A stretch of DNA of 63,629 bases, filler included, from Collodictyon triciliatum (lineage: Eukaryota): assembly GCA_043381765.1 (NCBI GenBank). It is 12 parts of 12 records of this genome, joined end to end, with 100 filler letters (N's around TTAATTAATTAA, not from the genome) between each part and the next. Parts side by side here need not be neighbours in the genome. Positions count along the whole stretch, not along the records: positions 60,762 to 63,629 come from JBHJMP010005443.1; 11 more parts are not named here. One strand, given 5' to 3'. The notes under the pieces were generated by a model, which worked only from the letters and a program-made list of their open reading frames with translations, was not told the DNA's origin and did no database searches. This document shows, piece after piece, positions 5,247 through 63,629 of this stretch; positions within the stretch are counted from its first letter, which is position 1, and every line of letters starts with the position of its first letter. The translations under genes and the position numbers were made by a program.

Positions 5247-5346
5247 NNNNNNNNNNNNNNNNNNNNNNNNNNNNNNNNNNNNNNNNNNNNTTAATTAATT
5301 AANNNNNNNNNNNNNNNNNNNNNNNNNNNNNNNNNNNNNNNNNNNN
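5247..5346. other. Artificial scaffold linker (N44-TTAATTAATTAA-N44); also at 10591, 15935, 23174, 28514, 33853, 39190, 44655, 49991, 55327 and 60662
   Basis: An identical 100-nt cassette with stops in all six frames occurs 11 times. Most intervening pieces are 5235-5246 bp, in descending order. Confidence 0.98.
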
Positions 5347-5347
5347 A

Positions 5348-8300: not shown

Positions 8301-10590
8301 GAAGCTCATCATGCAGTTTATGCTCATCAGGATTATATCAAAAAGAAGGAATTACAAAAGATTCACAATCATGCTACGCTTGTCCAAAAGGCACATTCAA
8401 CTCAAACTCCGGCTCATATGGAAACCAATCATGCATTGAATGTCCACAAGGTACTTGGAACGATAGAGATGGTCAAGCGTCATGCACATCATGTTCAGCT
8501 GGCACATTCAATAACAGAACTGGCTCATTTGATGAATCATCGTGCATTTCATGTCCAAACGGAAGCTACAGCTTAAGTGGAAGTTCATCTTGTAGCTTAT
8601 GCTTATCAGGATTATACCAAAAAGAAGATATCATAAAAGATTCAAATTCATGCTACACTTGTCCAAAAGGCACATTCAACTCAAACTCCGGCTCATATGG
8701 AAACAAATCATGTATTGAATGTCCACAAGGTACTTGGAATGATAGAGATGGTCAGGCATCGTGCACATCATGTCCAGCTGGTACATTCAACAATAAAACT
8801 GGCTCGTTTGATGAATCATCATGCATTTTATGTCCAAACGGAAGCTACAGCTCAGAGAGAAGCTCATCATGTAGCTTATGCTTATCAGGATTATACCAAA
8901 AAGAAGATATCACAAAAGATTCAAATTCATGCTATTCTTGTCCAAAAGGCACATTCAACTCAAAATCCGGCTCATATGGAAACAAATCATGCATTGAATG
9001 TCCACAAGGTACTTGGAATGATAGAGATGGTCAAGCATCGTGCACATCATGCCCAGCTGGGACATTCAGTAACAAATCTGGCTCATTCAATCAATCATCA
9101 TGCATTTCATGTCAAAATGGAAGTTACAGCTCAGAGAGAAGCTCATCATGCACATCATGTTCACCAGGATTCTACCAAAAAGAGGAAATCACAAAAGACT
9201 CAAAATCATGCCATGCTTGTCCAAAAGGCACATTCAACTCAAAATCCGGCTCATATGGAAACAAATCATGTATTGTATGTCCACAAGGTACTTGGAATAA
9301 TGATGATGGTCAAACATCATGCACATCATGTCCAGCTGGTACATTCAACAACAAATCTGGCTCATTCAATCAATCATCTTGCATGTCATGTCCAAATGGA
9401 AGCTACAGCTCAGAAAGAAGCTCATCATGCAGTTTATGCTTATCAGGATTCTATCAAAAAGAAGATATCATAAAAGACTCAAATTCATGCTATTCTTGTC
9501 CAAAAGGCACATTCAACTCAAAATCCGGCTCATATGGAAACAAATCATGTATTGAATGTCCACAAGGCACTTGGAATGATAAGGATGGCCAAGCATCGTG
9601 CACATCATGTCCAGCTGGTACATATAACAACAAAACTGGCTCATTCAACCAATCATTGTGCATCCAATGTCCAAACGGAAGCTTCAGCTCATCTGGAAGT
9701 GCATCATGCATCTTATGCTTATCAGGATTCTATCAAAAAGAAGGAATCACAAAAGATTCGGAATCATGCTATTCTTGTCCAAAAGGCACATTCAACTCAA
9801 AATCCGGCTCATATAGAAACAAGTCATGCATTGAATGTCCACAGGGCACTTGGAATGATAAGGATGGCCAAGCATCGTGCACATCATGCCCAGCTGGTAC
9901 ATTCAACAACAAAACTGGCTCATTCAACCAATCATTGTGCATTTCATGTCCAAATGGAAGCTACAGCTCAGAAAGAAGCTCATCATGCAGCTTATGTTTA
10001 TCAGGATTCTATCAAAAAGAAGGAATCACAAAAGACTCAAAATCATGTTATGCTTGTCCAAAAGGCACATTCAACCCAAACTCCGGATCATATGGAAATA
10101 AATCATGCATGGAATGTCCACAAGGCACATGGAATGATAGAGATGGTCAAGCATCGTGCACATCATGTCCAGTTGGTACGTTCAACAACAAAACTGGCTC
10201 GTTCAATCAATACTCATGCATTTCATGTCAAAATGGAAGCTACAGCTCAGAAAGAAGCGCATCATGCACATTATGTTCATCAGGATTCTATCAAAAAGAG
10301 GAAATCACAAAAGACTCAAAATCATGCTATGCTTGTCCAAAAGGCACATTCAACTCAAACTCCGGCTCATATAGAAACAAATCATGTATTGAATGTCCAC
10401 AAGGTACTTGGAATGTTAAGGACGGTCAAGCATCGTGCACATCATGTTCAGCTGGAACATTTAACAATAAAACTGGCTCGTTCGATATATTTTCGTGCAT
10501 TTCATGCCCAAATGGAAGCTACAGCTCAGAAAGAAGCGCATCATGCAGCTTATGTCCGACACGCTCAACCACAATTAAAGAAGGCTCCAA
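5348..10590 (+). CDS. Cys-rich repeat surface/secreted protein fragment (CxxC-xxG-(Y/F/W) ephrin-receptor-like/GCC2_GCC3 repeats); both ends missing
   Basis: One open frame across the whole scaffold, with about 18-19 units of 279 bp (93 aa). Each unit has five CxxC motifs and several N-x-S/T sequons. Confidence 0.92.
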
Positions 10591-11051
10591 NNNNNNNNNN
10601 NNNNNNNNNNNNNNNNNNNNNNNNNNNNNNNNNNTTAATTAATTAANNNNNNNNNNNNNNNNNNNNNNNNNNNNNNNNNNNNNNNNNNNNAAAAAAAGAA
10701 AAAGAAAAAGAAAAAGAAAAAGAAAAAGAAAAAAAAGAAAAAAAAGAAAAAAAAAGAAAAAAAAAAGAAAAAGAAAAAGAAAAAGAAAAGAAAAGAAAAG
10801 AAAAGAAAAAGAAAAAGAAAAAGAAAAAAAAGAAGAGGGAAATCTAATCAATGTATAATCCATATAATTTTTTTTTTTTTTTTGCACAATCAGTTTATGT
10901 CTGTTTTCAAATCGAGAATATAGAAACGAGAAACATCCTATCACGATAAAGGATGATTGGGCCGTCTGTTCTCTAAGCCTATCGAGCTCAACCCATCTTA
11001 ATTGATATCCATGGTATTTGTTCCGTTCTCAATTTCAGCATGGATGATAAC

Positions 11052-14000
11052 CTAGTCAAACAATGTATTCATCCACCGCCTTTGGTTATGAAGGACGATG
11101 CTATTGGTTCCATAGGCTTCTTCCAGAATGGGCAAAGCATCTTTTATGAGATTCTGAGCGTCCATCTTTTCTCCTACTTCATGTTTCATCCTTGCGAGCT
11201 GAATCAATAACCTACCCGAATGAGGGTGAACGTATCCAAGCAGTTTGGAGCGTCTGGAGAGCAGAGCAACCATTCTGTCGCAGCATTTATGATCTTTGCT
11301 CGAATTAAAGTCCAAAAGGCAGTTTTCCACTTCTAACGAAATCAAGAGAGGATGGTCATCTACCCACCACTGTTTTGCCGACTGCAGCGTCTCCAAAACA
11401 AAGCTTTTCGCTTCCCGACCCTCACCCCGAGTACGAAGAATGGAAGAAAGAATCAAAGCACAAGTTACTCTTTCCAACCGATAGCAACTCCAATCAGCAG
11501 ATTTAAATATGCCACACAAACTATTTGGGTTCTCCTCACCGCCAGAGTGATAGCGACATCCTATGAGAAGTATTTGCACCAAGATAACCAATGGATGTTG
11601 TGCCGAGTAGAGTTCACTTCGGATCGATAGTGCCCTTTCCAAATGCCCTGCACACAAAATTGTTTCTTCTAATTCCATATTTATTTGCGCAAGACCCTGG
11701 AAAGAATCAGCTAAATCACAATGTAAAGATGGGAGGGCGGATTCACGATTCACGAGTGACTGTCTGTATGAGTCAGATGCTCTAGAATACTGTCCCAAAT
11801 CTGTTTGCAACGACCCGATGAGGGATAAAGTTTGTGCTAGTCGTGGGTCCCGGGGATCTGATGATTTTTCTTGCAAGTTGAGAGCTTCCATCATTAAACT
11901 CAAGGCTGGGCGATATTTTCCCATCAAACGGTACACAGAAGCAGTTATGTGACATGCATATACTACTTTGATGTCGTCATCTGAGTGTCTTTCTCTTGTT
12001 TTCAATAAATGCGTTTCGGCACAAGACGATGCATACTTCCATTGCCCTATGGTCAGAAACACTTCAATAAAAACTACGCTGATGTCAAAATTCCAGTGAG
12101 GTTCAAACATCTCATGTATTTTTTTCACTAGTGATACGTCTTTTTGATATGCGAGACGCAAGATGATAGAATACTTCTTGGTATCGCTCACAAAACATTC
12201 GAATAAGTCACGTCTGAATAAGCGAAGAAGTGGCGAAGAATCCTTTAGACTGACCAAGTACTGAGCCAATTGAAAATACACATTTGCTTTTGTTTGTCCT
12301 TGAGGGATGTCACCCAGGCGATGAATAAGAAGATTCACATAATTCAAGCGAGGGTCACTCGGAAATTTGCGTTTTAGAATATCAAATGCCACTCTTCTGA
12401 TAAACCCATGCGAGAACTGAATGGTTCGGTCTCTAACCCGAAATAAAACCCCAAATTTCTTCAAGAAGGCAGAGTATATGCATGACGGTATTTCAAGCTG
12501 CCTGATGAGTTCAGACTCGTCTAATCCAGATGTTGCAGCAGAGAGATAACGGAAAAATCCCACGGCCACTGACTCATATTGGGCAAGAATCAGCTGTAAT
12601 ACACAATCGGTCAAATCATACATATTCCTGGCCTTTGACAACACCAAGGCGCGGTCTGTCATTTTTCCTTGCAGTAAATGCAACCCAACAGAAAACAACT
12701 GAGCAAAAAGTGGATTACCCTTGCAAACTGGATACATGATATCCACCACTTGTGGAATCCATGGATTGTCTGGCTCTATATTCATCATGAGAGTCTGTAT
12801 TTCACTCAAAGACCAAGAAGGTATTTCAAACACTTTCCAGCCTCTTGACTGAGCTATGGCAATATGATTGCTGTCAGAAGAAACCAAAACTATTTTTACT
12901 CCCTTTGAGAGCTTGTTTGGTACCCATGAGAATATCTGCTCATTTATGTTACTGCTTGCAAAATCGCCTAAATCATCTACAAAGAAGGTAGAAAATGACA
13001 ATTGGCTCTGAAGCAATAGGATATAACGGAAAAAGTTTGTATCCGGTTGTTCGTAAGTCCATACCCCTGGCACTTTGAGGATTTCCCTCTGCATCATGCT
13101 CGAAGTCAACTGTTTTTTAAATTTGTCTAGCATCGTTTCGAAATATGCGTTCTCGGGGTGTTTTGTAGTGGAGAAGTAGTATATCCCGCTGTCACCTTGG
13201 TCGTGTAGTTGGTGATAGTAATTTGTTAGCATGAAAGATTTCCCAGAACCAGGAGGACCATAAATCAAGACGGGTTGATTGGACGTGTCAATGCACTGCG
13301 TAAGTTGAAAAAGAGCCCCTTCCCTGTCAACCTGTTGCTCAGACGTATTGCATCCGAAAAAATCTTCCATGGATCTATGGCCTCCAGATAAACGATGCTC
13401 CAATATTTTAGTGTCACTCTTGAGTTTCTAGTAATAGTGGCATTTATTAGTGTTATAATTTATATATATATATATTTGTGGATCACATGTATTATGTAAG
13501 AGTGAGGCTACTGAACTGATATTATATCTTCACATATTCTCTCAACCAGCTGCTCTATTGAGCTATATTCAACAGTTGGGAACTTTGTGGAGACAAGGTT
13601 TCTCAAGGCGGGTTGTTTCTTTCGAGAATCAGCTGATGACCAATAATCCGGCTGTTCTTGGTCCTGATAATTATTGATAAAAGTTTTTTTTTTAGATGAA
13701 TGAGTGAGTCAAAGCAATGATAAAGGTTGAAGTTTAAATGGTACAATAGAAATGAAATAGGCGATGAAGTCGCTATGAAGTTACTTCAGATTTCATGTAG
13801 AAGAATCCACGGTTACAAGAAGGAATAGGTGCCATAGATGCCAGTCTTATCTAAAAATTAACAAAAAAAAAAATAATACATAAACGTAATCTACATATTA
13901 TTTCTCGATTCATATGATTCTAATCATAAGGAAAATACGATTATCAAACTATACTAATTATAAAGGGGCAAGTCCATTAAATCGTTCACTTAATGAACTG

Positions 14001-15427: not shown

Positions 15428-16035
15428 TGCGACCTTGGCGAGGAACGTGGTGTGAAAAGATTTCTTCATTTCTTACTTTCCTTCTCCTCTGACTTTTATA
15501 TTTTTTCTGGTTTCTTTACTTTTTCTCTCTCTCTCTCTTTTTTTTTTTAAAAAAAAATAACGGGTTGTTTTGATGGGTGATGAATGAAAGCGTTTTGCTT
15601 TGTTTCCTTCTGTGTGTTTATGGCTATGTGTAATTATCGACGGAGAGTTTGTGAGTCGATCTCCTTGGACTTTGTTTGAGTTCGGACTTTGATTCCCTTT
15701 TGGATGCGCGATTGGGAGAGAAAGAGAGAAAAAGGCAGCATCAAAAGAAATAAGAAAGAAAGAAAAAAAAAGTAACTATGTCCTGGCGCTGCGTCTCTAC
15801 AGTTACGTACATTGTCATTCAAACCAAAAGAAACAAAACAAAACAAAACAAAACAAAACAAAACAAAACAAAACAAAACAAAACAAAACAAAACAAAACA
15901 AAACAAAACAAAACAAAACAAAACAAAACAAAACNNNNNNNNNNNNNNNNNNNNNNNNNNNNNNNNNNNNNNNNNNNNTTAATTAATTAANNNNNNNNNN
16001 NNNNNNNNNNNNNNNNNNNNNNNNNNNNNNNNNNT

Positions 16036-21920: not shown

Positions 21921-23790
21921 TGCGGATTTCGATCGATGTATAGGTCATTGTACACACCTTAATTATGTACAAATAGATCTCTGTTAGCTACCCCTCCTTA
22001 TGACTGGTTTTGGCTGTGGTATATTACATCAAATGAGAGTGTATCGAGAGCCATGATTGTCGATTCTTCTTGCAGAGTTTTAATTTCATCTATGGTCTCT
22101 GAGGTGATATTTGAAATCTGATTGCTTTCGATCTCCAGCATTAGACTTCCTTTATTGCTTATACGATTCCAATAAACTATCTTCGTGCAACATGCAAATA
22201 TCAAAAGGTCATTTCTCATAGGACTCACCATTTAAGCAAGGATTAATGGCGAACAGCAGGTCATCCATCTGGAGCATAATATCTCAAAATGCGAAAAATT
22301 TGATGGACTCGTACCCTCTGAATCCATCAGCCTCTTCTGATTTAAAGGAAAAGGTTAGTTATTAGAAAAAAAAAATTTTTTTTTGAAAGTTTGACTTTAT
22401 ATATCACTGATTATCGTAATCCCACTCTTACATACGGTAAATTGTGACTCTGCAGATTACCAGGACATTAGAATTCTCGCCAATTGATTCAACATTTACT
22501 CTCGTTGTATGTATTCGTTTGATTCGCATCCCTGGGGGAGGTTGCTTGATCACCTATTTCAACATCGTGCGTAATCGTTACTTTCATATTTTACCACTGA
22601 TGGTATTATCTGATTATATCAATATGTTTTCTTATCTTCGCCCTTTTCAGGCGATGCATACATCAGTAATATTTAAAGTTTTGCATAAACGAATAATACA
22701 ATTCTAATTCTAATTTATTCGAATCGTATGGCTCTCGATCATCACAATAACTATATATATATAAAAAAAACAGAAGAAAGGTTAGCTCTTCAGCACCATA
22801 ATTTATATAATCTATCAGAGTCAATTCCATTTTTCTTTTCTTCTATTTGATTTTATTATATAAAAAAGTAGCTTCTAGTGCTCATATGTACCTCACTGAT
22901 TCGGCATTAACATTCTATGAAAGATTCTGCACCACATATTAATCCAGGTTCTTTGGGATATCGAGCTGTTAATTCAGAATCTATCCCTTCGAAGCTACTG
23001 GAATCCATTCATGGGACAGGTTAGTAATTCGCCAGCTAAGGCCTACCTTGTATCCCCCACCCCCCACCCTCATCTTTCTTCTTTTTTCTTCTTTTTTCTT
23101 CTTTTTTCTTCTTTTTTCTTCTTTTTTCTTCTTTTTTCTTCTTTTTTCTTCTTTTTTCTTCTTTTTTCTTCTTNNNNNNNNNNNNNNNNNNNNNNNNNNN
23201 NNNNNNNNNNNNNNNNNTTAATTAATTAANNNNNNNNNNNNNNNNNNNNNNNNNNNNNNNNNNNNNNNNNNNNAAAGGAAAAGAAAAGGAAAAGAAAAGA
23301 AAAAAAAAGGAAAAGAAAAGGAAAGGAAAGGAAAGAAAAGAAAAAAGGAAAGGAAAAAGAAAAGAAAAGAAAGGAAAGGAAAGGAAAGGAAAAGAAAAGG
23401 AAAAAAAAGGAAAAGAAAAGGAAAGGAAAGGAAAGAAAAGAAAAAAGGAAAGGAAAAAGAAAAGAAAAGAAAGGAAAGGAAAGGAAAGGAAAGGAAAGGA
23501 AAGGAAAGGAAAGGAAAGGAAAAGAAAAGGAAAAGAAAAGAAAAGGAAAAGAAAAGGAAAAGGAAAAGGGAAAAGAAAAGGAAAAGGATTCAACAAAATC
23601 AAATAGATATGTTTTCATTTTTGTGTTTTTATTCTGTTTTCATGGAGCGTCCTTCTGGGAAAAAGCGGAGGTCTGCTTGAAAAAACCCAGAGAATCCCCT
23701 CCATCTAAAATAAATGAAATTAAGGAACATGTATTCATATGCATTTACTAATATTACTTACCTTGTTAAGCTCAGGCTTTCTTTCTCCAC

Positions 23791-23808
23791 TCAGCTGCTT
23801 TCATCGTT

Positions 23809-23846
<38 letters not shown>

Positions 23847-26800
23847 TATTATTATTATCATCATCTCGTAACACAAAGTTTTCTGCTTTTGCAAACCACT
23901 CAGCAGCTCTCTCGGTGTCCTTCTCAACACTCCATCCATTCTCATAGCATTCAGCAATAATAGAAACAGCCTGTGGATATTTGTGTTCACCATAATCCTC
24001 GTCTACAATTTCAGCCATTTCTTTCAAGACATTGAATGCCTCTTTTGAACCTTGTTGTGCGTGTTGCTTCATTTTGTCAAAGTTTCCAGTCTTTTTTAGC
24101 CATTCAGCTACTTTCTCGATGTCCTTCTCAACACCCCATCCATTCTCATAGCATTCAGCAACAATAGAAACAGCCTGTGGATATTTGTATTTTTCACCAA
24201 TTTTGTCTCCATACTCCAGAATATCCTTCTTCATTTCAGCCATTTCTTTCAAAACATTGAATGCCTCCTTTGAGCCTTGTTGTGCGTGTTGCTTCAGTTT
24301 GTCAAATTTTTCAGCTTTTCCAAGCCACTCGATAGCTCTCTCGGTGTCCTTCTCAACATCCCATCCATTCTCATAGCATTCAGCCATCATTTGAGCCTGG
24401 AACGTGGTGAACTCACCCTGCTCACAATAGGCAGCAAAGTCCGCATCAAAGGAAGCAGCACCCTCTTGCAGGAATAGTTTCTTGTTCATTGCATCCAGTT
24501 CAGCTCTGTTGATATGAGTGTTCGCAGCTTCAAGCTTTCTTGGGCCGATAATTCGAACAGTTCTCACGTTCATTATTCTGCTTGTATCAATCATATTCAT
24601 CGCATCACTTGTACTATTGAATACTGTGATGACTTCTGGTTTATCTTTCATGACCAATTGGCTCTTCTCATTGTAGGTCGCTTCTGATATTTTCAGGCTG
24701 TGTATTTGGTTTCCTGTGGCTACATCCCAAATGCGTATCGTGCTATCTCCACTTCCAGAAGCCAGCCAATTTTCACCATTCGGTCCTTGAATACTGCAAA
24801 CACTCATGACAATATTTGTATGACCTTCTAATGTTTTGATTTGGTTTCCTGTGGCTACATCCCAAATACGTATTGTATTATCTCGACTTCCAGAAGCTAA
24901 CCAATTTTCACGATTCGGTCCTTGAATACTGCAAACACTCTTGACATCATCTGTATGACCCTCTAATGTTTTGATTCGGTTTCCTGTGGATACATCCCAA
25001 ATACGTATTGTTTTATCATAACTTCCAGAAGCCAGCCAATTTTCACCATTCGCTCCTTGAATACTGCAAACACTATTGACTGGCTCTGTATGACCTTCTA
25101 ATGTTTTGATTTGGTTCCCTGTGGCTACATCCCAAATACGTATTGTATTATCAACACCTCCAGAAGCCAACCACTTTTCACCATTCGGACCTTGAATACT
25201 GCAAACACTCATGACCCAGCTTGTATGACCTTCTAATGTTTTGATTTGATTTCCTGTGGATACATTCCAAATACGTATTGTTGTATCATAACTTCCAGAA
25301 GCCAGCCAATTTTCACCATTCGGACCTTGAATACTGCAAACACTACTGACATAATGTGTATGTCCTTCTAATGTTTTGATATGGTTTCCTGTAGCTACAT
25401 CCCAAATACGTATTGTATTATCTTCACCTCCAGAAGCCAACCACTTTTCACCATTCGGCCCTTGAATACTGCAAACACTCATGACCCAGCTTGTATGACC
25501 TTCTAATGTTTTGATTTGATTTCCTGTGGATACATCCCAAATACGTATTGTTTCATCACGACTTCCAGAACCTAGCCACTTTTCACCATTCGGTCCTTGA
25601 ATACTGCAAACGCTGACGACAGCTTCTGTATGTCCTTCTAATGTTTTGATTTGGCTTCCTGTGGATACATCCCAAATACGTATTGTCTTGTCTTCACCTC
25701 CAGAAGCCAGCCATTTTTCACCATTCGGTCCGTGAATGCTGCAAACACTCATGACAGCACTTGTATGTCCTTCTAATGTTTTGATTCGGCTTCCTGTGGA
25801 TACATCCCAAATACGTATCGTCTTATCATGACTTCCAGAAGCCAACCAATTTTCACCATTCGCTCCTTGAATACTGCAAACACTATTGACTGGCTCTGAA
25901 TGGCCTTCTAATGTTTTTATTTGGCTTCCTGTGGCTACATCCCAAATACGTAATGTTTTATCATAACTTCCAGAAGCCAACCAGTTTTCACCATTCGGTC
26001 CTTGAATACTGCAAACACGATAGACAGCGCTTGTATGTCCTTCTAATATTTTGATATGGTTTCCTGTGGCTACGTCCCAAATACGTATTGATTCATCACC
26101 ACTTCCAGAAGCCAACCACTTTTCACCATTCGGTCCTTGAATACTGCAAATACTCTTGACATCATCTGTATGACCCTCTAATGTTTTGATTCGGTTTCCT
26201 GTGGATACATCCCAAATACGTATTGTTTTATCACCACTTCCAGAAGCTAACCAATTTTCACCATTCGGTCCTTGAATACTGCAAACACTCATGACTGGCT
26301 CTGTATGACCTTCTAATGTTTTGATATGGCTTCCTGTGGATACATCCCAAATACGTATTGATTCATCATCACTTCCAGAAGCCAGCCAATTTTCACCATT
26401 CGTAACTTGAATACTGCAAACACTATTGACTGGCTCTGAATGGCCTTCTAATGTTTTTATTTGGCTTCCTGTGGCTACATCCCAAATACGTAATGTTTCA
26501 TCACGGCTTCCAGAAGCCAGCCAATTTTCACCATTCGGTCCTTGAATACTGCAAACACTATTGACAGAACTTGTATGTCCCAAAAACAAAGGCAAGCGAC
26601 CAAAATTAACGCCTTTCATATTTGCATGATCAAAAACACAGTTGGAAATGCACGCATTATAGAACAAAACACCCTCCAAGTTGGCACCAGTGAAGTCAGC
26701 ACCATCAGCAACAGACTGTGACATATCGGCATCTGGAATTTGAATCCCTCTGAAATCCATTCCACTGAATGAAACATCAGCATAGTTCAGAATTGTGATG

Positions 26801-28513
26801 GCATTTGATGCAGCTTGCGCTTTGCTTGCATCTACCTTGGACTGCTCAATAATTGAAAACAGATTGTCTTTGTAGGCATTGTCTTTGTTCACTTTTTCAC
26901 TCAGGTTGAGCAGAATGGCAGGCTCAAGCTTTTTATCCAGAACATTTGTCTTCACTTTTGATTTCATCACAGAATGAACAGCATTGAAAAGCTTGAAGCT
27001 TGGTGATTTCGCATCAGATTTTTCAGGCATAGAATTCGCGGCTTCAGAGGACTTTGGAACATTTTGAGCTTCAGTTGATGGTTGGGTAGTATCTTGATTT
27101 TCGCCACCGGAACCATTGATTTCATCTTTGATGTATTCAGCAGCAAAGAATTCGTAGAGCGATTTGTGGAAGAACTCATACGTTGTGGCACTAGATTTCT
27201 TAATGGGTGCACATCGCAATACAAAGACAGAGTAAGTTGGCTCACCATCAATCATATGGTTTGGATTAGGATGGAAAAATTCGTCATATTCGTGCTTCTT
27301 TGCTTTCCCCTCAACTTTGTCGTACTCCAAAGCAAGATGGCCTTTCTGGAACATGACTTCCGCAATATCTTTGCACTTCACCCATAGCAATGCTGGCAAA
27401 TCCTGAGGCATTTTCTGTTTCAATGACAAATTTTCTTCAAGCTTTTCTTTTTCGCGCTCAAACCAACTCTCAGAGAACTTCTTTAGAAAGTCTGTTCGCA
27501 GCATCTTTGCGTTATCTTTTGACTTCGACTCAGCTCTTTCCTTCAGTATGGACGGCAGGGTGGTGGCTGCCATGAAAATCATAAACGGAGTGACGGCCAA
27601 TTCGTCTAGCTCCTTGATTTTCTTCAACTCTTCCTCATACTTTTCTCCTTTTTCCCATCCTTCAATGGGATTTCTCTCAGCATACTTGTTGAAGTAATCA
27701 AGCCTTTGCTTAGTTTCAAAAGGTCTTAGATATATTTCATCCAGAGAGTATCCATGACTGGCTTTGGGTGCAAATAGCGATTGGTACTGAGATTTTTTGT
27801 CCAAAAACTGCTTTCGGCATCCAATCACAAACTTGCAGTTGGGCCATTCTTCAAGCTTATTTGAAATATAGAAAGATGTACCATTATCTTCAATCTCATC
27901 ATAACCATCCAGAAAAATGATGAATTTCATCTTTTTCAATTCTTTTATTTGGTCGATTCGAAAATCAGAGTCTGGGATGTAGAAGCTGTTTTTACTCTCA
28001 GAATGAAGCAGTTCCTCGATGGCGTTTTCTCTGGGCTTTTCCAATGAAGTGAGCGCAGCATACAAAGGAATATGCGTTCCGTATTTATGTTTATACTTTT
28101 CCCAAAGCAATCGCACAATAAACTGCTGTAACCATGATTTTCCAGAGCCAGAATCGCCAAGTATGAGCAGCACTTTTTCATTTCCAGATGTGATGAAATT
28201 CAGGATGTATTCTTGGGCATCAAACACTTTTCCTTTCTCAGCAACTCTTTCGGCTTGACCGGGAATATATGTGTTAAAACGACTTTTGAATTCTTCATTT
28301 CGAATGGTCTCCTCCTTGATATTCTCGACGATTTCTTGAATTGTTCTTTCGTCTTTACCAGCTTTTTCAAAAAGTGCAGTAGGTAATTTTGACTCTTTTG
28401 GCTTATATTTTGCCATTTCTTGCTTTTTTGATTCCACAAATCGATTAATAACCTCACTTTTCAACCATTTTTCATGACGTGTGATATGCTCCATTAATTC
28501 ACGGACTTTTTGT
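23791..28513 (-). CDS. NLR-like STAND protein: NACHT, pentapeptide repeats, 14 WD40 repeats, 3 SEL1-like repeats; 5'-truncated at the scaffold edge
   Basis: Walker A GDSGSGKS, Walker B IIFLDGYDE, FFHKSLYEFFAA, AASNAITILN followed by pentapeptides, 14 GH...WD units, and three AECYENGWxVEKD repeats. The frame stays open to the scaffold end; no introns. Confidence 0.93.
24700..26580 (-). repeat. 14 highly similar 135-bp (45-aa) WD40 coding repeats
   Basis: 135-bp periodicity (e.g. ATCCCAAAT at ~24724 and ~24859). Confidence 0.95.
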
Positions 28514-28613
28514 NNNNNNNNNNNNNNNNNNNNNNNNNNNNNNNNNNNNNNNNNNNNTTAATTAATTAANNNNNNNNNNNNNNNNNNNNNNNNNNNNNNN
28601 NNNNNNNNNNNNN

Positions 28614-29696: not shown

Positions 29697-31079
29697 TTAG
29701 CAGGTAAGGTTCTTGATGAAGCCGGTGACCTCGCTGATTGTGCGCGAGTGGAAGGCCATCTGGATGTTTGTCAGTCCACCAGAGCACTGATGGCAATACG
29801 ACATGATTGTTCCGCGGGTGGCGCTGCAGCCGGGGGTGGAGCCGCAGTAGTCAGCAGGAGGGTTAAGCTCGTGGGTGTGCGAACCTCCGAAGACGTGGCC
29901 GACCTCGTGGGCGAACACGTAGATGTCCCAGTTCTGTCCGTTGTAGTTCTGGACTGGGGTGGGGAAGTAGCCGACCATGTTGCCGTTGATGGCGTAGGCA
30001 TAGTTGGTGTTGCAGAGGACGCGAACATAGGCGATGCCTCCACCAAGATTCTTGGCAGAGACAAGGGCGGCCAGCGAGCGGCTGGGTGTGCTGGGGCTCC
30101 AGGTGCGACGCATGTAGTCCAGAGCCTGCGAGGCAGAGCAGCAAGGGTAGCCGTCGGGGCTGGTGAAGATCTTCATGTAGACAGAGGAGAGGCCTGATGC
30201 GAAGTCGCGGGCGTAGATCGAGTGGGTGGCACCAATCAGTGTCGAGTAGAAGCTGGCAGTGGCGTCGTAGCTGGAACTCTTCTTGCGGTACATGTCGTAG
30301 TCGACATCAGAGGCGACGCGGAAGACACGGCGAGTGCGACCATCAGCGGTGGTTCCAACAACCTCGGAGTACTGCATCATGGCCTCGCTGGGAACCGAGA
30401 GCGAGTCCGTTCCGTGGGTGGGGAAGTTGGGCATCTGGATGTTCATGCCAGTGGCCTCAAAGACAACAGAGGCGCGGACATTGGCGTTGGTGGACGACAG
30501 AGCGACAGCTTGCTTGCCAAGAAGGCTCACATACTCATCCATGCGCAGCTGGTCGGCGCTGATGTTCTCCTGCTCGTGTGGCTGCGACTCCCAGGGAGTG
30601 GACAGGATGAACGTGCGGTTGCCAATCTGAGCATACCCGTTCGAGCCGTGCACACTCAGGGACAGGAACACGTACGAGCCCTCGGCCTCGGCAGTAGCCA
30701 GGGTGCGGCCCTCCAGAGCAGAGAGCTTTCCGTGGAGCAGCATGACGCTGGCGGCCTTCTCGGCATCGCCTCCATCAGCCTCGGCAACGACGGAGAAGCG
30801 CTCCAGCGACAGGTCAGCCTCAACACCGACACCCAGAGGGAAGGCGGCCACGCGGAGTGGCTGGTTGAGGGGGACGCTGGCAAGGCCGGCTCCGGTGCGA
30901 AGAGTCTCGGAGAGGACCAGGCACAGACCACGGCCGCTGGGGTCGCGGCCGCAGCGGCTGAAGGGCGAGGCAACAGTCAGAACCTGGCTGCTGCTGGCGG
31001 GGCGGAAGGGGACGCTCAGGACGGCGCTGAGGGCGGCCAGGAGGACGAGGCCGACGGCGAGGGAGGAGCGGCGGACCAT
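29697..31079 (-). CDS. Secreted M12 (reprolysin-like) zinc metalloprotease, copy 1, intronless
   Basis: Signal peptide, HEVGHVFGGSH (HExxHxxGxxH), Met-turn GTIMSYC, and an upstream TATA box. Confidence 0.93.
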   Translation of the reverse strand: MVRRSSLAVGLVLLAALSAVLSVPFRPASSSQVLTVASPFSRCGRDPSGRGLCLVLSETLRTGAGLASVPLNQPLRVAAFPLGVGVEADLSLERFSVVAEADGGDAEKAASVMLLHGKLSALEGRTLATAEAEGSYVFLSLSVHGSNGYAQIGNRTFILSTPWESQPHEQENISADQLRMDEYVSLLGKQAVALSSTNANVRASVVFEATGMNIQMPNFPTHGTDSLSVPSEAMMQYSEVVGTTADGRTRRVFRVASDVDYDMYRKKSSSYDATASFYSTLIGATHSIYARDFASGLSSVYMKIFTSPDGYPCCSASQALDYMRRTWSPSTPSRSLAALVSAKNLGGGIAYVRVLCNTNYAYAINGNMVGYFPTPVQNYNGQNWDIYVFAHEVGHVFGGSHTHELNPPADYCGSTPGCSATRGTIMSYCHQCSGGLTNIQMAFHSRTISEVTGFIKNLTC

Positions 31080-31127
31080 TCTGTTGGGGTTGGATGTTTT
31101 ACATTGTGTTTGGAGAGTGGCTGGGGG

Positions 31128-33852: not shown

Positions 33853-33952
33853 NNNNNNNNNNNNNNNNNNNNNNNNNNNNNNNNNNNNNNNNNNNNTTAA
33901 TTAATTAANNNNNNNNNNNNNNNNNNNNNNNNNNNNNNNNNNNNNNNNNNNN

Positions 33953-38035: not shown

Positions 38036-41000
38036 NNNNNNNNNNNNNNNNNNNNNNNNNNNNNNNNNNNNNNNNNNNNNNNNNNNNNNNNNNNNNNNNN
38101 NNNNNNNNNNNNNNNNNNNNNNNNNNNNNNNNNNNNNNNNNNNNNNNNNNNNNNNNNNNNNNNNNNNNNNNNNNNNNNNNNNNNNNNNNNNNNNNNNNNN
38201 NNNNNNNNNNNNNNNNNNNNNNNNNNNNNNNNNNNNNNNNNNNNNNNNNNNNNNNNNNNNNNNNNNNNNNNNNNNNNNNNNNNNNNNNNNNNNNNNNNNN
38301 NNNNNNNNNNNNNNNNNNNNNNNNNNNNNNNNNNNNNNNNNNNNNNNNNNNNNNNNNNNNNNNNNNNNNNNNNNNNNNNNNNNNNNNNNNNNNNNNNNNN
38401 NNNNNNNNNNNNNNNNNNNNNNNNNNNNNNNNNNNNNNNNNNNNNNNNNNNNNNNNNNNNNNNNNNNNNNNNNNNNNNNNNNNNNNNNNNNNNNNNNNNN
38501 NNNNNNNNNNNNNNNNNNNNNNNNNNNNNNNNNNNNNNNNNNNNNNNNNNNNNNNNNNNNNNNNNNNNNNNNNNNNNNNNNNNNNNNNNNNNNNNNNNNN
38601 NNNNNNNNNNNNNNNNNNNNNNNNNNNNNNNNNNNNGGCAGGGTACAAATGAGCGTTATTGCGGCTGTGAAGAATATTTGTTCTGTTTGAGTAACTCAGT
38701 GTTCCTGAACGAGAAACAATATTTCGAGTAACCTACTTAATTAGGATATGATTATATGATAATTATAAGCATTATTTTATTGACTATTGGACAAAAATAG
38801 GAGATGAAAGATATCTATATGATATAAAATGCTAAAATATTATAAATTCCACATTTGATATCATTCTTGGAATTTATAATTATGTTGCTAATAGTCACTT
38901 ATTTTATTTTCTAATCTGACTAATATGCTTGAAATACATATGCAATAACAAATATAAAATTGTATGCATATAGGGATTCATATGATTTATCAGTATTTTT
39001 GGTTACACGGCTTATTGCAGCACCCAATCCGGCACATGGAGGTTAGCAAGCAAGATCGGCCCCGCGCCCTTTGCCCGCTTCCAGAGTGTTCCAGGGGCAA
39101 TAAAAACAACAAAACAACAAAACAACAAAACAACAAAACAACAAAACAACAAAACAACAAAACAACAAAACAACAAAACAACAAAACAANNNNNNNNNNN
39201 NNNNNNNNNNNNNNNNNNNNNNNNNNNNNNNNNTTAATTAATTAANNNNNNNNNNNNNNNNNNNNNNNNNNNNNNNNNNNNNNNNNNNNCAAAGCACATA
39301 GGTCGATTTATATCACGATTCAGGACTTCGTTTGTAATAAATTTGCGACAAGAGAACCAGACATGATTTGATTAAACACTCCATGCTGGTATTCTTATCA
39401 TGCGAACTTTTTTTTTCAATTTAGAGATGATTTCTCAACTTTTTTTACATTTTCAATTTTGTTTTGTACAGTATTAGGTATGTTGGCTTTGATTCGCTAG
39501 TATTTGTTCGCATGGATGCTTCCGTCGGAACCTGAGTGACAGAGAAGTAGTCGGTAATTAGGATTTGCAAATCGCGCTTTGGCCTGTAGCCTAAGTCTTA
39601 TGGTGCACGGGAGGTAAGAAGAGGTTAAATCACTTTCTTGGTTTCTTTACACACATTACTTCTCACAGGGCCCGATTAATGAAGAATGTGAAGATGGTAA
39701 AATAATCAGTTGTGTAAATGGGGAGTCATATCACATTAGTAGCAAAGATTCTGCACTTTTATAGTCTCTAATCCTTATAATCATGTACAGAACTATTGTA
39801 TGAAGAGACATCCTGCCATGTGAGAAAAATAAACTCATCCGTTCTGGTATGTCGAAATTTTATTAGTTTATTTTTGTGACTTTTCATCCGAAAAATACCA
39901 GTTTTATATCCCCTTATTTTTATGCAGCACACATTTTTTTGGAGAGATTAGTAGAAATCGGTGCCTTATGTTACCAATCACTTCTTTATCTATAATTGTT
40001 TTTATAAAATTACAGACATTAATCCGATCATAGGATTTGGTTTTCTACTCTGGGAATTTTTTTGTTGAAAAAGAACACGATTGAATTGTTTTGGAGAGCC
40101 TTACACAAGTTAGTAAATTCAAGTGTTTCTAATTGAAAATCGATAATTTCAGACGTGATACATTTTAGAATATCATTTATTCACTTTTTGAGCGTTTGTA
40201 ATTTTTATATGGAAACGAATAGGCACTACGATTATGTCGTCATATGTAATTCGATATTGTCAACACAAAGTCTGATAAATACTATTTAGAGGCAGCATCA
40301 TTCTTCATTTATTATTCCGATGTCTTTTTTTGTATTCTTATTCATATAGGAATGACTACATTCATGCTCCTTGGGGCTGAAGTAAACGAAAGTGAAGGAG
40401 GGGTTTTATAATGAATCTGTATTTTTTTCAACTTTACACATGGAAATCGATTGATTGATACAGGGACTATATGAATTCTGTCGACTTTGATTGTCCCTTC
40501 AGTCTATTCTTATCCATTTCTAATAACAGTAAACATCTGTAGCCACAGCGCAACCGAATTGCTTTAATTCAGAATAATATAATATTGATATATATAATGA
40601 TTGTATTCATGACTATGCCCACATAGATGAGAAAGATAATCATTCGTTTATACCATGAAGGAACCAGTTGGAGGCCTTTAAATATCCAATACGGCCGAAA
40701 GTAGACGAAGTTGCTTGCTTATTATGTTTCGCGGCTCACGGTTTATTACGTTGCCTGAAATGAAAGATTATATTAAAGAAATGCTTTTATTTTACCTCAT
40801 TTATTTTTACGTGATTAAAATAAAAGATTTATAAATTTATGTCTGTTTCATGCTCCATCGTTAATGTGGCTAGTATCAGAATAGCTCAATACATTACATT
40901 TTTTAATAGCTTATTTTTTATGAATCTGATTTTATCGAAAAATATTTAAGCAAAAAGAGGTGTTTATATATCAGTATCATAATAATCTCGAAATATATGT

Positions 41001-44615: not shown

Positions 44616-44854
44616 TCTTTCATATTTAAGGTTTTTTTTTAATTTTTTTTGAACNNNNNNNNNNNNNNNNNNNNNNNNNNNNNNNNNNNNNNNNNNNNTT
44701 AATTAATTAANNNNNNNNNNNNNNNNNNNNNNNNNNNNNNNNNNNNNNNNNNNNAGAAATAAAGAGAAAAAAAAGAAAAAAAAAGAAAAAAAAAGAAAAA
44801 AAAAGAAAAAAAAGAAAAAAAAGAAAAAAAGAAAAAAAAAGAAAAGGAGCTTAC

Positions 44855-49990: not shown

Positions 49991-50361
49991 NNNNNNNNNN
50001 NNNNNNNNNNNNNNNNNNNNNNNNNNNNNNNNNNTTAATTAATTAANNNNNNNNNNNNNNNNNNNNNNNNNNNNNNNNNNNNNNNNNNNNAGAAAAAAAG
50101 AAAAAAAGAAAAAAAGAAAAAAAGAAAAAAGAAAAAAAGAAAAAAAGAAAAAAAGAAAAAAAGAAAAAAAGAAAAAAAGAAAAAAAGAAGAAAAAAGAAA
50201 AGAGAAAAAAGAAAAGAGAAAAAAGAAAAGAGAAAAAAGAAAAGAGAAAAAAGAAAATATAAAAGAAAAAGAAAAAAGAAAAAAAAAGAAAAAGAACAGA
50301 AGTATATCAGCACATGTAAACCCTTGATTTCAAAGCTGATGAATTATTTTCCTCTGTGCAG

Positions 50362-55120: not shown

Positions 55121-55689
55121 CTTGGTGATGCTGATTCGTTGAAAAAAAAAAGCTGATTAAAGTCAATGGGATTCAAAAATACTCTCTTTGGAATTCTCGA
55201 TCACCATAGCATTATTTCCGGTGCTGTGTTTTATTTTCCGGATTTAGACTTCTATAAGCGTATTAAATATTCGAAAGAGTAAAATTCGTTCTGATCTAAA
55301 TTAAAATAATCAAAAAAACAAAAAAANNNNNNNNNNNNNNNNNNNNNNNNNNNNNNNNNNNNNNNNNNNNTTAATTAATTAANNNNNNNNNNNNNNNNNN
55401 NNNNNNNNNNNNNNNNNNNNNNNNNNAACAAAAAACAAAAAACAAAAAACAAAAAACAAAAAACAAAAAACAAAAAACAAAAAACAAAAAACAACAAAAA
55501 CAACAAAAACAACAAAAACAACAAAAACAACAAAAACAACAAAAACAACAAAAATAACAAAAACAACAAAAATAACAATAACAACAAAAATAACAAAAAT
55601 AACAAAAAAACAAAAAACAAAAAAAACAACGAAAACAGCAGGATGAAAAAAATAGTGATGTTTTGCCCAGAAACATAGCGGAGACAAAC

Positions 55690-60661: not shown

Positions 60662-60761
60662 NNNNNNNNNNNNNNNNNNNNNNNNNNNNNNNNNNNNNNN
60701 NNNNNTTAATTAATTAANNNNNNNNNNNNNNNNNNNNNNNNNNNNNNNNNNNNNNNNNNNN

Positions 60762-60845
<84 letters not shown>

Positions 60846-60983
60846 AAAAAAAAAACAAAAGAAAACAAAAAATTAAGTCTAGGGCGCATAAAACTCATCG
60901 TCATGAAAACATATTAACATAAACCACAAGAAAACAAAGAGCAGGGAACCCAGTGTTAGCAGCCAGGAGTCCAGAACCCAGTA

Positions 60984-62450
60984 ATGAAGTTGACGTTCTT
61001 GGGGACCAGCGCGGGCATCGGCCAAGAGCATCGACGTGGAAACTCATACGCCTATACGGATGAATCCAACGGAAAATCATTGCTAATAGACTGTGGAGTC
61101 GGGCTCTACAGAAGCCTTCTTTCTCAGAGACTTCCCTTCAAGCAAGGTAAGATAGCCGGGATAGTTATTCTCACTCGCCACCGTGGCCACATGCTCGGGC
61201 TGATCGAGCTCCTCTGCTCTTGGTCGATGGGTCAACGTGCGGATGTTCTAGTCATTGCAGGCCCAGCTGGCCTAGAAAGGTGGATTGTTGATACATGTCT
61301 AGAGCTGGACACCACTTTCCCCTTCCCCGTGGAATACATAGAGTTCCCATCGGGTATGCCCGCTGAGGATCCATACTTTCGCTTCCATGTTGCATCGTGG
61401 CTCATATGTGTATTTCCAGTGCCGCACGGACCCACGCCATCTTTTGGCCTCTGGGTAGCTGAGCATGATAAAAGGACATCCCAGATGCCGGAAAAGTCAG
61501 ACGGGCCGCCGAGTTCCCCAGAAATCTCAATTCCTTCGTCCGTATCGATGGGCACACGCGCAATATTCATAGGAGATACGAGTGGAGCAGTGGACATAGT
61601 GCTTGACTTTGTGAAGTGGTTGGTCAAATCTGCCACCATAATGCACACAGACGAAGGAAATACAAGATTAGTGGATGATACAGTTGACTGCCTTGTTCAT
61701 GAAGCAACATTCTCGGACGAGGATAAGGAAATGGCTGTGAAGAAATCTCATTCGACTTTCAAAGACGCCGTCGATTTAGCAAAGGTATCGAATGTTGCTG
61801 AATATATCTAGCGGAATTAATATATGTGTATAAGTTCTTTATTCTCAGGTTTACCAGGATTTGATTTGCAGATTTTTTTTTCTGACTTAACATGCTATTT
61901 TTAAGTACCTTATTTCACACTTCACATTTTAACCTCTTTTTTTTTTTCGTCATGTAATTTCAGGTCATTCGAGCCAAAAAGCTTGTTCTAACTCACTTCC
62001 ATCCTATGTATCAATCAAAGGATCCAGAGGTTCGACAAGCTCTCCTTTTTATTTGTATTTGCACCTTTTTAATCAACTTACATTTATGATTGCTACTTTT
62101 TTTTTTTTTTTTTTTTTTTTTTATTTTTTTTTTTTTTTTTTTTTTTTTAATATTTTTATTTTTTTTTTTTTTTTTTTTTTTGCGTATTTTTATATTTTCT
62201 GTTGTGGTGCGATAATGAAACAGCTCGAATATTTCTAGACAATCTTTCATTCACCCAAAACCTATCGCTTAAGCTTGGCAAAAGACAAATGTATAACCAG
62301 TCTTGTATACTCAAGGTGATTGGGGATCCGCTAATCAGCAGTATGGTGTCTAAAGCACAGGCTCTTGCTGGTGAAGATATCCAAGTAATTGAGGCTGTGG
62401 ACTTTCAAACAGTCAACATTGGGAGTAGCAAAAAACAGACGCCGATTTGA
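60984..62450 (+). CDS. Short-form RNase Z (ELAC1/ElaC-like) homologue with degenerate motif II; exons 60984-61784, 61964-62029, ~62316-62450
   Basis: LTFLGTSAG, LLIDCG, PVPH, GDT, HEATF, HST and LVLTHF motifs are present. HxHxDH reads TRHRGH. Confidence 0.88.
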
Positions 62451-62737
62451 ACATTCAGAAAGCCTCTATTTTAGCCACTTTGCAGTCCAGACGAACCTCC
62501 TAATAAATAAATGAATAAAATCAACACACAATGATATTTATATATTCTAGGTATATAGAATATATAAAATTCACACAATACATAAATCAGTATCTCGAAT
62601 CAACCCTCAGTTTTTCGATTGGGCGCATCGTTCTTGGCGTGTGTTGGTCGGTTTCCACAAACATACTCACCAAATTTACTTTATGCGATAGGAGTATACC
62701 ATCTTTCGATTGGTTGAACTGGTGCGCTAGTATTCGA

Positions 62738-62794
62738 GGTCTCACCACTTTTTTCACAAAGATTTTGTAGTGATGAAGGCTGCCAGGAAAGACC
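62738..62794 (-). ncRNA. Candidate Fanzor omegaRNA scaffold remnant
   Basis: Nested stems just 3' of RuvC-III: GGUC/GACC, UCAUCACU/AGUGGUGA and ACAAA/UUUGU. Confidence 0.45.
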
Positions 62795-63577
62795 CAACAG
62801 CCTGTTTTTTAGGGAAGGCGTAAGCAAATTTTGAAGGATTAAAAGAACTTTCTTGAGTATACTATTAGCGCTGTTAAAGTCCCTTGTCAAGAATACACTT
62901 TGTTTGCTTTCTGGGCGATTGCATTATTTAAATACGAGACATTTATACAAATTTTTTTGAATTTCCTTTCGGTTTCACGTATTCCAGTTCTTTTTCGCAG
63001 TTACAACACATCTTGGAGGTTCTAAATTCATCTACACTAACTGCTTCAAAACGTTTGGATAGTATTTTTCGTAATCCTCTTCCGATTGTTGGCATAAAAT
63101 GTTTCATCAGAGATTTTCTGCTCCAGTTTCCATACGCCAGTACAACATCCTTGCCAAATGTCTTTTCGATTTGATCCATATACAACTGTTCACTTCCTTT
63201 TGTATTAACATACTGTCTCCATCTCATCTTTCGAAAAGTTACTTGTTTATAAAATCTGGAAAGTACTATCTGGTATCTTAATTTCATCGATACATATTTT
63301 CGAAACTTTTCATAATCGACGTGCATGAATTTTGTTTACTCAGTTCTGTCTCTAAATCGATTAAAGATACTCTTGATGTCTCAAACAGCTGATTCTCTTC
63401 AAAAGTCCTGAGACCATAAGAAACAGCACTTTGAAAATCTGTTGCCATGCATATCCCTGAAGCATTGTATTTTTAATTTTTTCTCTCGCAAGAGTATTTT
63501 GTGATTATTAAGAGATTTGTTATCATGTCTTGTTTGATGTGCCGCGTGACATAATTTCTTACCTGTCTCATCCACCA

Positions 63578-63580
<3 letters not shown>
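62790..63580 (-). pseudogene. Fanzor1 (eukaryotic TnpB-like RNA-guided endonuclease) pseudogene, C-terminal half
   Basis: YMVDETGKKL...ILLREK, ETELSKQNS/VDYEKF, FRKMRWRQY, VVLAYGNWS...MPTIGRGLRK, VDEFRTSKMCCNC, decayed second zinc-finger half CLVFK*C, and RuvC-III TRDFNSANSI. At least two frameshifts, a stop and an insertion. Confidence 0.88.
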
Positions 63581-63610
<30 letters not shown>

Positions 63611-63629
63611 AAAATTTCTCTGCTTTTTT

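Follow-up and report, generated by a model that had tools for sequence, protein, structure and literature searches.

The DNA analyzed here is a 63,629-nucleotide stretch (the window) of the Collodictyon triciliatum assembly GCA_043381765.1, and its last piece carries what is left of a gene for Fanzor1, a eukaryotic RNA-guided nuclease that is borne by transposons and related to bacterial TnpB. We conclude that the relic is very probably a decayed, non-functional Fanzor1 copy that adjoins an expressed RNase Z gene of a freshwater eukaryote and belongs to a multicopy, transcribed family. Fanzor1 proteins cut DNA under the guidance of an omega RNA and are reported from fungi, protists, arthropods, plants, and giant viruses (Saito et al. 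2023, PMC10432273), and 3655 unique Fanzor sequences have been reported from 22,497 assemblies (PMC10530073). Coordinates of the relic and of the other features discussed are collected in Table 1.

The relic resembles solved Fanzor1 proteins more than anything else of known structure. Its longest piece, an open frame of 130 codons, was compared with all PDB chains, and four sequences were matched at an E value of 10 or less. The top three were PpFz1 of Parasitella parasitica (5.6e-14), GtFz1 of Guillardia theta (6e-08), and SpuFz1 of Spizellomyces punctatus (3e-06), all of them solved Fanzor1 proteins, and nothing else was credible. In each of these three alignments, the Gly of YGNW lay opposite a Gly and the Glu of DEFRTS lay opposite a Glu. 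Moreover, a search with the same frame of a library of 1.84 billion representative proteins returned 1827 relatives at an E value of 1e-3 or less, 584 of them at 1e-10 or less, and relatives were at most 63% identical in protein to the window copy. The best relative (P0001) is 209 amino acids long and 62% identical (E value of 1.1e-42), and the best full-length-looking one (P0003) has 634 amino acids and is 52% identical, with query residues 5 to 127 aligned to its residues 432 to 554. When nine relatives were compared with the whole window by tblastn, matches were found only at the relic, and no second Fanzor copy was detected in the window by that search (next best match elsewhere, E value of 0.47). 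We note that one relative, a 378-amino-acid Fanzor1 fragment (P0002), is named "6-pyruvoyl-tetrahydropterin synthase" at its source, which looks like a mis-annotation.

The assignment was sharpened by the relatives themselves. An alignment was built from 40 of the 72 full-length relatives and the 130-codon frame of the window (41 sequences). In it, Gly496 and Glu530 were invariant, and D372-P373-G374, C537, C540, C564, and R580-D581-N583 were at least 90% conserved. The profile of this alignment found 15 PDB hits at an E value of 10 or less. The three solved Fanzor1 proteins were matched over nearly their whole length at 5.7e-94 (PpFz1), 1.5e-90 (SpuFz1, over profile positions 8 to 607 of 621), and 2.2e-74, and the nearest hits outside Fanzor1, LaTranC (4e-4) and a Cas12m (0.09), covered the zinc-finger and RuvC-III part only. 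Fanzor2 and TnpB (e.g., ISDra2 TnpB) share the split RuvC (D-E-D) and the zinc finger between RuvC-II and RuvC-III, but no chain so named was among the 15 hits. The initial annotation had called the relic a Fanzor1, and this call is supported by the sequence and profile searches. Membership of the relic in Fanzor1 is thus well supported by comparison of protein sequences. Whether the resemblance might instead be due to chance, or to contamination by a prokaryotic TnpB, was also weighed. The zinc-ribbon match in Pfam is below threshold, and the assembly is a chain of short contigs, as either idea would allow. The open frame by itself, however, reaches the E values given above for PDB and for the library, its best solved matches are all eukaryotic Fanzor1 proteins, and the same contig holds a gene whose two spliceosomal introns are borne out by RNA contigs. 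We regard chance or contamination as negligible.

What the catalytic motifs show is narrower than what the similarity searches show. The motifs that the initial annotation had listed, namely, Gly in AYGNW, an alternative Glu ahead of the zinc finger, and RDFNSA, were all read on the minus strand where it had placed them, in the order expected for a TnpB-type nuclease. The Gly of AYGNW is an inert residue at the canonical RuvC-II position and corresponds to the invariant G496 of the relatives, six residues separate Glu from Cys in VDEFRTSKMCCNC, and RDFNSA aligns with R580-D581-N583, though out of frame with RuvC-II. Two such residues, G500 and E536, were noted as "extremely conserved" in Fanzor1 as early as 2013 (Bao and Jurka, PMC3627910), and Fanzors have been defined by the DPG of RuvC-I together with a Glu six residues ahead of the first CxxC (Yoon et al. 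2023, PMC10711439). All Fanzors, and some TnpBs with them, are reported to have Gly or Pro at the canonical RuvC-II position together with the alternative Glu (Jiang et al. 2023, PMC10530073), and the alternative Glu is reported also in Fanzor2 and in "TnpB2" or pro-Fanzor TnpBs (PMC10530073, PMC10711439). Thus, the rearranged site is present as the initial annotation had said, but it is not characteristic of Fanzor1 specifically. Because Gly with alternative Glu marks all Fanzors, the Fanzor1 call rests on similarity and not on the motif: the motif marks the relic as Fanzor type, and the similarity searches mark it as Fanzor1.

The copy is dead, as had been proposed. Lesions were mapped by a scripted, frameshift-aware alignment of protein to DNA, in which residues 1 to 209 of P0001 aligned to positions 63584 to 62946 (score of 574) and residues 350 to 616 of P0003 aligned down to position 62774 (score of 486; the upstream third of the latter alignment was in the wrong frame and was disregarded). 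The same protein was carried through other frames in the right order, from YMVDETG in the first frame (63561-63581, minus strand) to FLTRD, and the flanking motifs therefore do extend the match, as claimed before. Three frameshifts were found. Along the minus strand, the first (+1) falls in an A5 run at 63467-63470, the second (-1) at 63318-63319, and the third (+1) in a T7 run (62952-62958 on the plus strand). All three are at or beside short homopolymer runs: two sit inside such runs, and the remaining one sits in a TCG repeat. In addition, there is an in-frame TAA at 62924-62926 on the minus strand, and a Phe codon (TTT, 62930-62932) replaces the Cys that is the last of the zinc finger in relatives. 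The first CxxC pair of the zinc finger is intact, and the second reads C-L-V-F followed by Lys and TAA. No continuous frame exists, with three frameshifts and one stop in the visible 830 bases, and the N-terminal ~370 codons lie outside the window. Because RuvC-I is unreadable, RuvC-II and RuvC-III are in different frames, and the zinc finger is broken, the copy cannot make a nuclease.

One might suppose that the gene still functions, with the frame changes being small introns or programmed frameshifts and the stop being read through. Eukaryotic Fanzor genes can indeed carry introns (PMC10530073), and the longest piece of the relic is a clean 130-codon open frame. No introns lie at the frame changes, however, because the alignment runs residue by residue across each shift and leaves nothing to splice out, and the shifts fall in short runs and a repeat. 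RNA contigs of related copies are colinear across the places of the frame changes. Moreover, Cys has become Phe and is followed by TAA where related contigs have Cys and a sense codon, and no DPG is encoded upstream within the window. We find a functional gene very hard to credit. A stretch of ~34 codons within 63320-63469 was likewise considered as an intron, and both it and the frame changes were ruled out as such, given colinear RNA contigs and a continuous protein alignment; the stretch is not a spliced intron there because related RNA contigs (records 7 and 23) run through it without a skip. Shared by the window copy and P0001 and missing from P0003, it is an insertion of the subfamily.

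How much of the gene lies beyond the homopolymer turns on the window's edge. Relatives carry VGxDPGK nine residues (GK and the next seven) ahead of their equivalent of YMVD, which is the place of the homopolymer in the relic, and DPG is absent from all frames of 63582-63629. Past the homopolymer, 21 bases remain before the window ends at 63629, 48 bases upstream of YMVDETG. The initial annotation had RuvC-I absent with a homopolymer in its stead; this is borne out for 63582-63629, but RuvC-I and the N-terminal half may or may not be lost, as the window ends 48 bases upstream. The missing DPG is a lesion of the window copy; D372-P373-G374 is at least 90% conserved in the relatives. Continuation of the gene past the homopolymer by way of KKQRNF, which resembles the KQRNVV before the DPG of P0008, was considered and set aside, as the likeness was not above chance (P of 0.257 in 2000 shuffles and of 0.068 in 2872 random 21-mers of the window). 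We note that long A or T homopolymers, tens of bases in length, recur in introns and intergenic DNA of the contig that holds the relic (62100-62180, 60762-60850, and 63581-63608). The homopolymer at the place of RuvC-I is thus not the only one, and it may reflect a general tendency of the genome or of the assembly.

The relic has many transcribed relatives. Two assemblies, X1 and X2, are RNA derived, because the introns of the neighboring RNase Z gene are spliced out in them. At a likeness of at least 80%, 141 contigs of X1 and 174 of X2 matched the stretch that holds RNase Z and the relic, most of them within 62740-63540 and mostly 80 to 95% alike. The longest listed contigs differ from the window by ~9 to 14% (e.g., 53 other letters and 10 gaps in 451 bases), and the maximum number of contigs across one place (62979) was 15 in X1 and 19 in X2. 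Related contigs lack four of the five lesions mapped in the window copy. Most contigs over the relic are free of its stop and its Phe: the stop (62926) is replaced by a sense codon in 7 contigs of X1 and 11 of X2, and the Phe codon (62931) by Cys in 10 contigs of each assembly. At the frameshift at 63319, an extra base removes the shift in 5 contigs of X1 and 3 of X2; and the T7 run (62952) is one base shorter in 2 contigs of X1 and none of X2. Moreover, a loose contig end at 62953 translates as V-Y-R-C-L-I-C-K-E-C. Because related contigs read Cys, a sense codon, and an unshifted frame, the lesions are private to the window copy, and the family is multicopy and transcribed. The broken second zinc-finger pair is decay of the window copy and not a difference of the family. 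Loose contig ends at 62953, 63320, and 63477 were also considered as junctions and rejected, as they resemble the window's own sequence, indel shifted or diverged, and are breaks in alignment.

The initial annotation had raised intact relatives in the genome. Related transcribed copies do exist, but the deepest-covered one looks frameshifted. That contig, the deepest covered in both X1 and X2 (depth of ~55), has single-base insertions behind 63100 and 63169, and because both insertions fall where the window frame is open and conserved, it is apparently broken as well. Among the contigs of X1 and X2, none was seen to be a full-length or intact copy.

Several observations weigh against the reading of a dead Fanzor1 from a multicopy family. 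The Pfam search of the four pieces gave only PF07282, at an E value of 0.034 and 14.7 bits against a cutoff of 26.3, and the three short flanking pieces by themselves found no Fanzor in PDB (6, 0, and 1 matches, all at an E value of at least 0.69). RuvC-I, the N-terminal WED/REC half, the omega RNA, the element ends, and a partner transposase are not visible in the window, and the tail below ~62860 is too decayed for a frame to be assigned. The visible stretch fits both a surviving fragment and a full-length broken copy that runs beyond the window. Moreover, summed contig depth is not copy number, and the related contigs could come in part from another organism or virus in the same samples. 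With respect to Pfam, the full-length relative P0003 falls below the cutoff too and P0015 is above it; Pfam is nearly blind to the clade of the relic and its relatives.

The relic sits beside a cellular gene. The window is a chain of separate contigs joined by eleven identical 100-base linkers, N44-TTAATTAATTAA-N44, which we take to be the usual six-frame-stop spacer for chaining contigs, and the pieces between them are ~5.24 kb each, many of them with a microsatellite or homopolymer at the end. Adjacency is therefore not shown for genes on different pieces, and because the piece with the relic starts at 60762, only the RNase Z gene is its true neighbor. At that piece length, ~2.4 kb of the relic's contig should extend past the end of the window. 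Two GT..AG introns of that gene (61783-61961 and 62028-62313) are removed in contigs of X1 and X2, which differ from the exons at 2 positions in 632 bases and at none in 262 and which end near 62568-62575; the lack of RNA-contig cover at 62028-62294 and over most of 61850-61938 reflects introns and repeats. Two other studies, both of fresh water, contributed identical pieces of RNase Z, one from a metatranscriptome (X3) and one from a metagenome (X4). As RNase Z is spliced and present in freshwater samples, the relic lies tail to tail with, and ~120 to 180 bases from, an expressed cellular gene of a freshwater eukaryote.

Signs of a mobile element around the relic are partial: a spliced neighbor and a multicopy family are seen, and no terminal inverted repeats (TIRs), target duplication, or transposase is visible in the window. 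Four weak inverted pairs were found in the window, none of which flanks the relic sensibly, and a transposase like that of the giant-virus locus described below was absent from the window. The lower end of the remnant is uncertain, with candidate stops at 62754-62756 in one frame and 62681-62683 in another. Likeness within the family drops near 62690-62740, which is 20 to 65 bases past the likelier stop, and summed depth falls below 62740. Perhaps the flank at 62690-62753 is what remains of the element's right end, the part of Fanzor elements that encodes the omega RNA, and the drop in likeness fits that idea.

Relatives of full length are found on giant-virus contigs. The nearest full-length relatives (46 to 52% identity) include intact genes there. 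On metagenome contigs of the Joint Genome Institute that were scanned with the open frame, 11 loci were found at 40 to 48% identity; in nine, an open frame of 595 to 646 codons includes DPG and RDxN, another runs into the contig end, and the last is a fragment. One locus (L003, 47% identical to the window frame) lies on a 63,382-base contig that is the same as that of L012 in IMG/VR, where it is filed under a GVMAG name, presumably for giant-virus metagenome-assembled genome. There, perfect TIRs enclose a transposase and an intact Fanzor1, in what is apparently an intact 3.4-kb Tc1/mariner-like element (7201-10647), and the same element, at >99% identity, was found on a different contig (L004/L013). 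Transposase of this kind stands beside Fanzor1 in 3 of the 11 metagenome loci, whole in L003 and L004 and as a fragment in L002, and is absent from the other eight. An identical 623-codon frame occurs on four different metagenome contigs (L007-L010). One Fanzor1 clade, noted with L007-L010 and with 80 IMG/VR loci (L012-L091), is very abundant in the viral collection IMG/VR, where 262 of 268 candidate stretches encode relatives. Over the C-terminal region, 80 of 90 locus rows collapse into one cluster at 80% identity.

A tree of 69 rows was built on 132 C-terminal columns from the first 60 protein rows by identifier (of 134 at 80% clustering), eight locus rows (four cluster representatives and four members added back), and the window itself. 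Two loci, L002 and L011, were left out for a match of fewer than 100 residues or an X in the frame. The tree is unrooted, with 33 of 66 inner forks open, and gives no donor or direction. The window paired with P0001 with a support of 98 in the Shimodaira-Hasegawa-like approximate likelihood ratio test. That pair fell outside a clade (support of 87) that holds seven of the eight virus- and metagenome-borne rows, L033 being the exception.

The relic could, in principle, be a scrap of an endogenized giant virus or of an element delivered by a virus, rather than part of a transposon family resident in the host. Among full-length relatives, the nearest that can be placed (46 to 48% identity) are on gene-dense, low-GC contigs, one of them with the GVMAG name noted above, relatives abound in the viral collection, and virus-borne Fanzor1 genes are described as intermingling with eukaryotic ones, with viruses proposed as vectors (Bao and Jurka 2013, PMC3627910). 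The visible neighbor, however, is a spliced and expressed cellular gene, with no viral gene visible there, and the many diverged transcribed relatives fit a dispersed repeat family. Moreover, the window and P0001 stand apart from most of the virus and metagenome rows in the tree, the deeper forks of which are unresolved over its 132 columns. We consider a viral scrap improbable, and an old transfer from a virus is possible. The reading that we favor remains that of a decayed copy from a multicopy family.

Solved and described Fanzor1 elements give an idea of what the intact ancestor might have been. PpFz1 (PDB 9CF0-9CF3; Cell 2024, PMC11423790) is the best solved match, over query residues 30 to 122, in which LGNWS aligns with YGNWS and IDEFRTSSFCPKCE with VDEFRTSKMCCNCE. 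PpFz1 is intact and active, whereas the window copy is frameshifted, has a stop, has lost one zinc-finger Cys, and does not show RuvC-I; identity is modest, and the closest relatives of the window have ~600 to 650 amino acids. SpuFz1 (PDB 8GKH) is the protein of SPu-1 of S. punctatus, a ~2.1-kb element described with TIRs, a TA duplication, and many ~92%-alike copies, some of them broken (PMC3627910). The relic is like it in domain order and in the conserved Gly and Glu, and the multicopy picture resembles the 80 to 95% family seen here, but the window frame by itself matches SpuFz1 less well than PpFz1, and neither element ends nor a target duplication can be defined for the window copy. Fanzor1 is reported in Tc/mariner elements with TA duplications, and the layout of mariner transposase plus Fanzor1 is described for PGv-1 and PUl-1 (Bao and Jurka 2013, PMC3627910). 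The giant-virus locus L003/L012 has the same architecture as these giant-virus and protist elements, whereas no transposase or TIR was found in the window, the relevant side being beyond its end.

The ancestral element would have been a cut-and-paste DNA transposon and, to judge by a relative, perhaps a Tc1/mariner-type one that had TIRs and targeted TA. It may have encoded a Fanzor1 of ~600 to 650 residues and an omega RNA that overlapped both the 3' end of that gene and the element's right end. The complex of the two would have cut double-stranded DNA at targets flanked by a target-adjacent motif (TAM), as is shown for SpuFz1 and other Fanzors (PMC10432273). Bacterial TnpB is reported to cut vacated sites and so to help its element persist (PMC10690162).

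Table 1. Positions of the relic, of other window features, and of the related element on the contig of locus L003 (positions of the last three rows are those of that contig)
Feature	Position	Strand	Remarks
Fanzor1 pseudogene remnant	62754-63581	-	Corresponds to residues ~380-620 of P0003 (634 aa); begins just behind RuvC-I and reaches the C-terminal tail
Piece 1, first frame, YMVDETGKKL...REKKLK	63471-63581	-	Ends at +1 frameshift in A5 run; from P0001 alignment
Piece 2, second frame, ~34-codon insertion then SLIDLETELSKQNSC	63320-63469	-	Ends at -1 frameshift
130-codon open frame	62943-63335	-	Holds AYGNW, alternative Glu, first zinc-finger pair; ends at +1 frameshift in T7 run
AYGNW, Gly at canonical RuvC-II position	63123-63137 (Gly codon, 63129-63131)	-	Inside 130-codon frame
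VDEFRTSKMCCNC	62997-63035	-	Inside 130-codon frame
Alternative Glu, in VDEFRTSK	63027-63029	-	Inside 130-codon frame
First zinc-finger pair CCNC, intact	62997-63008	-	Inside 130-codon frame
Degenerate second zinc-finger pair C-L-V-F-K-stop-C	62921-62941	-	Frame next to 130-codon frame
RuvC-III RDFNSA, within FLTRDFNSA	62867-62884	-	Asp codon 62879-62881 intact; other frame than RuvC-II
3' flank partly common to related contigs	62690-62753	-	Other-letter rows at 62734 and 62736 in 6 X1 contigs; X2 record 9 starts at 62690
Homopolymer A28 (plus strand), T28 (minus strand)	63581-63608		At place of RuvC-I in relatives
RNase Z gene (short ELAC-type)	60960-62575	+	E value of 1.1e-14 to 2cbn; Pfam Lactamase_B_2
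Linkers, first six of eleven	5247-5346, 10591-10690, 15935-16034, 23174-23273, 28514-28613, 33853-33952		100 bases each
Linkers, last five of eleven	39190-39289, 44655-44754, 49991-50090, 55327-55426, 60662-60761		100 bases each
1747-codon open frame, 38 Ephrin_rec_like repeats	5347-10590	+	E value of 3.6e-285; fills whole contig, open at both ends
L003, perfect 35-nt TIRs	7201-7235 and 10613-10647		TA inside outer five bases of each arm
L003, DDE_3 plus helix-turn-helix (HTH) transposase	7255-8274		E value of 1.5e-17; inside TIRs
L003, intact Fanzor1, 595 codons	8768-10555		Inside TIRs; 57 bases from stop to right TIR

Other pieces of the window hold further genes. The frame at 5347-10590 is part of a larger gene for a cysteine-rich surface protein, as it is open at both ends. 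Three long intron-free frames on the minus strand encode a 1573-codon WD40-repeat protein (23791-28512), a P-loop NTPase (ATPase_2/NPHP3_N/AAA_16) with TPR repeats (11052-13427), and a reprolysin-like M12 metalloprotease (29697-31127). Further frames of 230 to 870 codons had no Pfam match.

The relic is genuine but unremarkable: it adds a dead member to a family that is already well described. Fanzor1 elements and their dead copies have been known since 2013, and the relic itself matters little. Its value is modest and is that of a marker for a freshwater eukaryote with a multicopy, transcribed Fanzor1 family, a small branch beside a very abundant branch borne by giant viruses. We speculate, tentatively and with more doubt than confidence, that some members of the family in the source organism, which is a common freshwater eukaryote, are intact and active; they would be compact (~600 to 650 amino acids), transcribed Fanzor1 proteins with an omega RNA and a TAM of their own, in a small clade of the window and P0001 apart from the giant-virus clade, possibly with past viral exchange. 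If an intact copy exists, it would be one more candidate for a small RNA-guided nuclease and one more case that bears on how transposons move between giant viruses and hosts.

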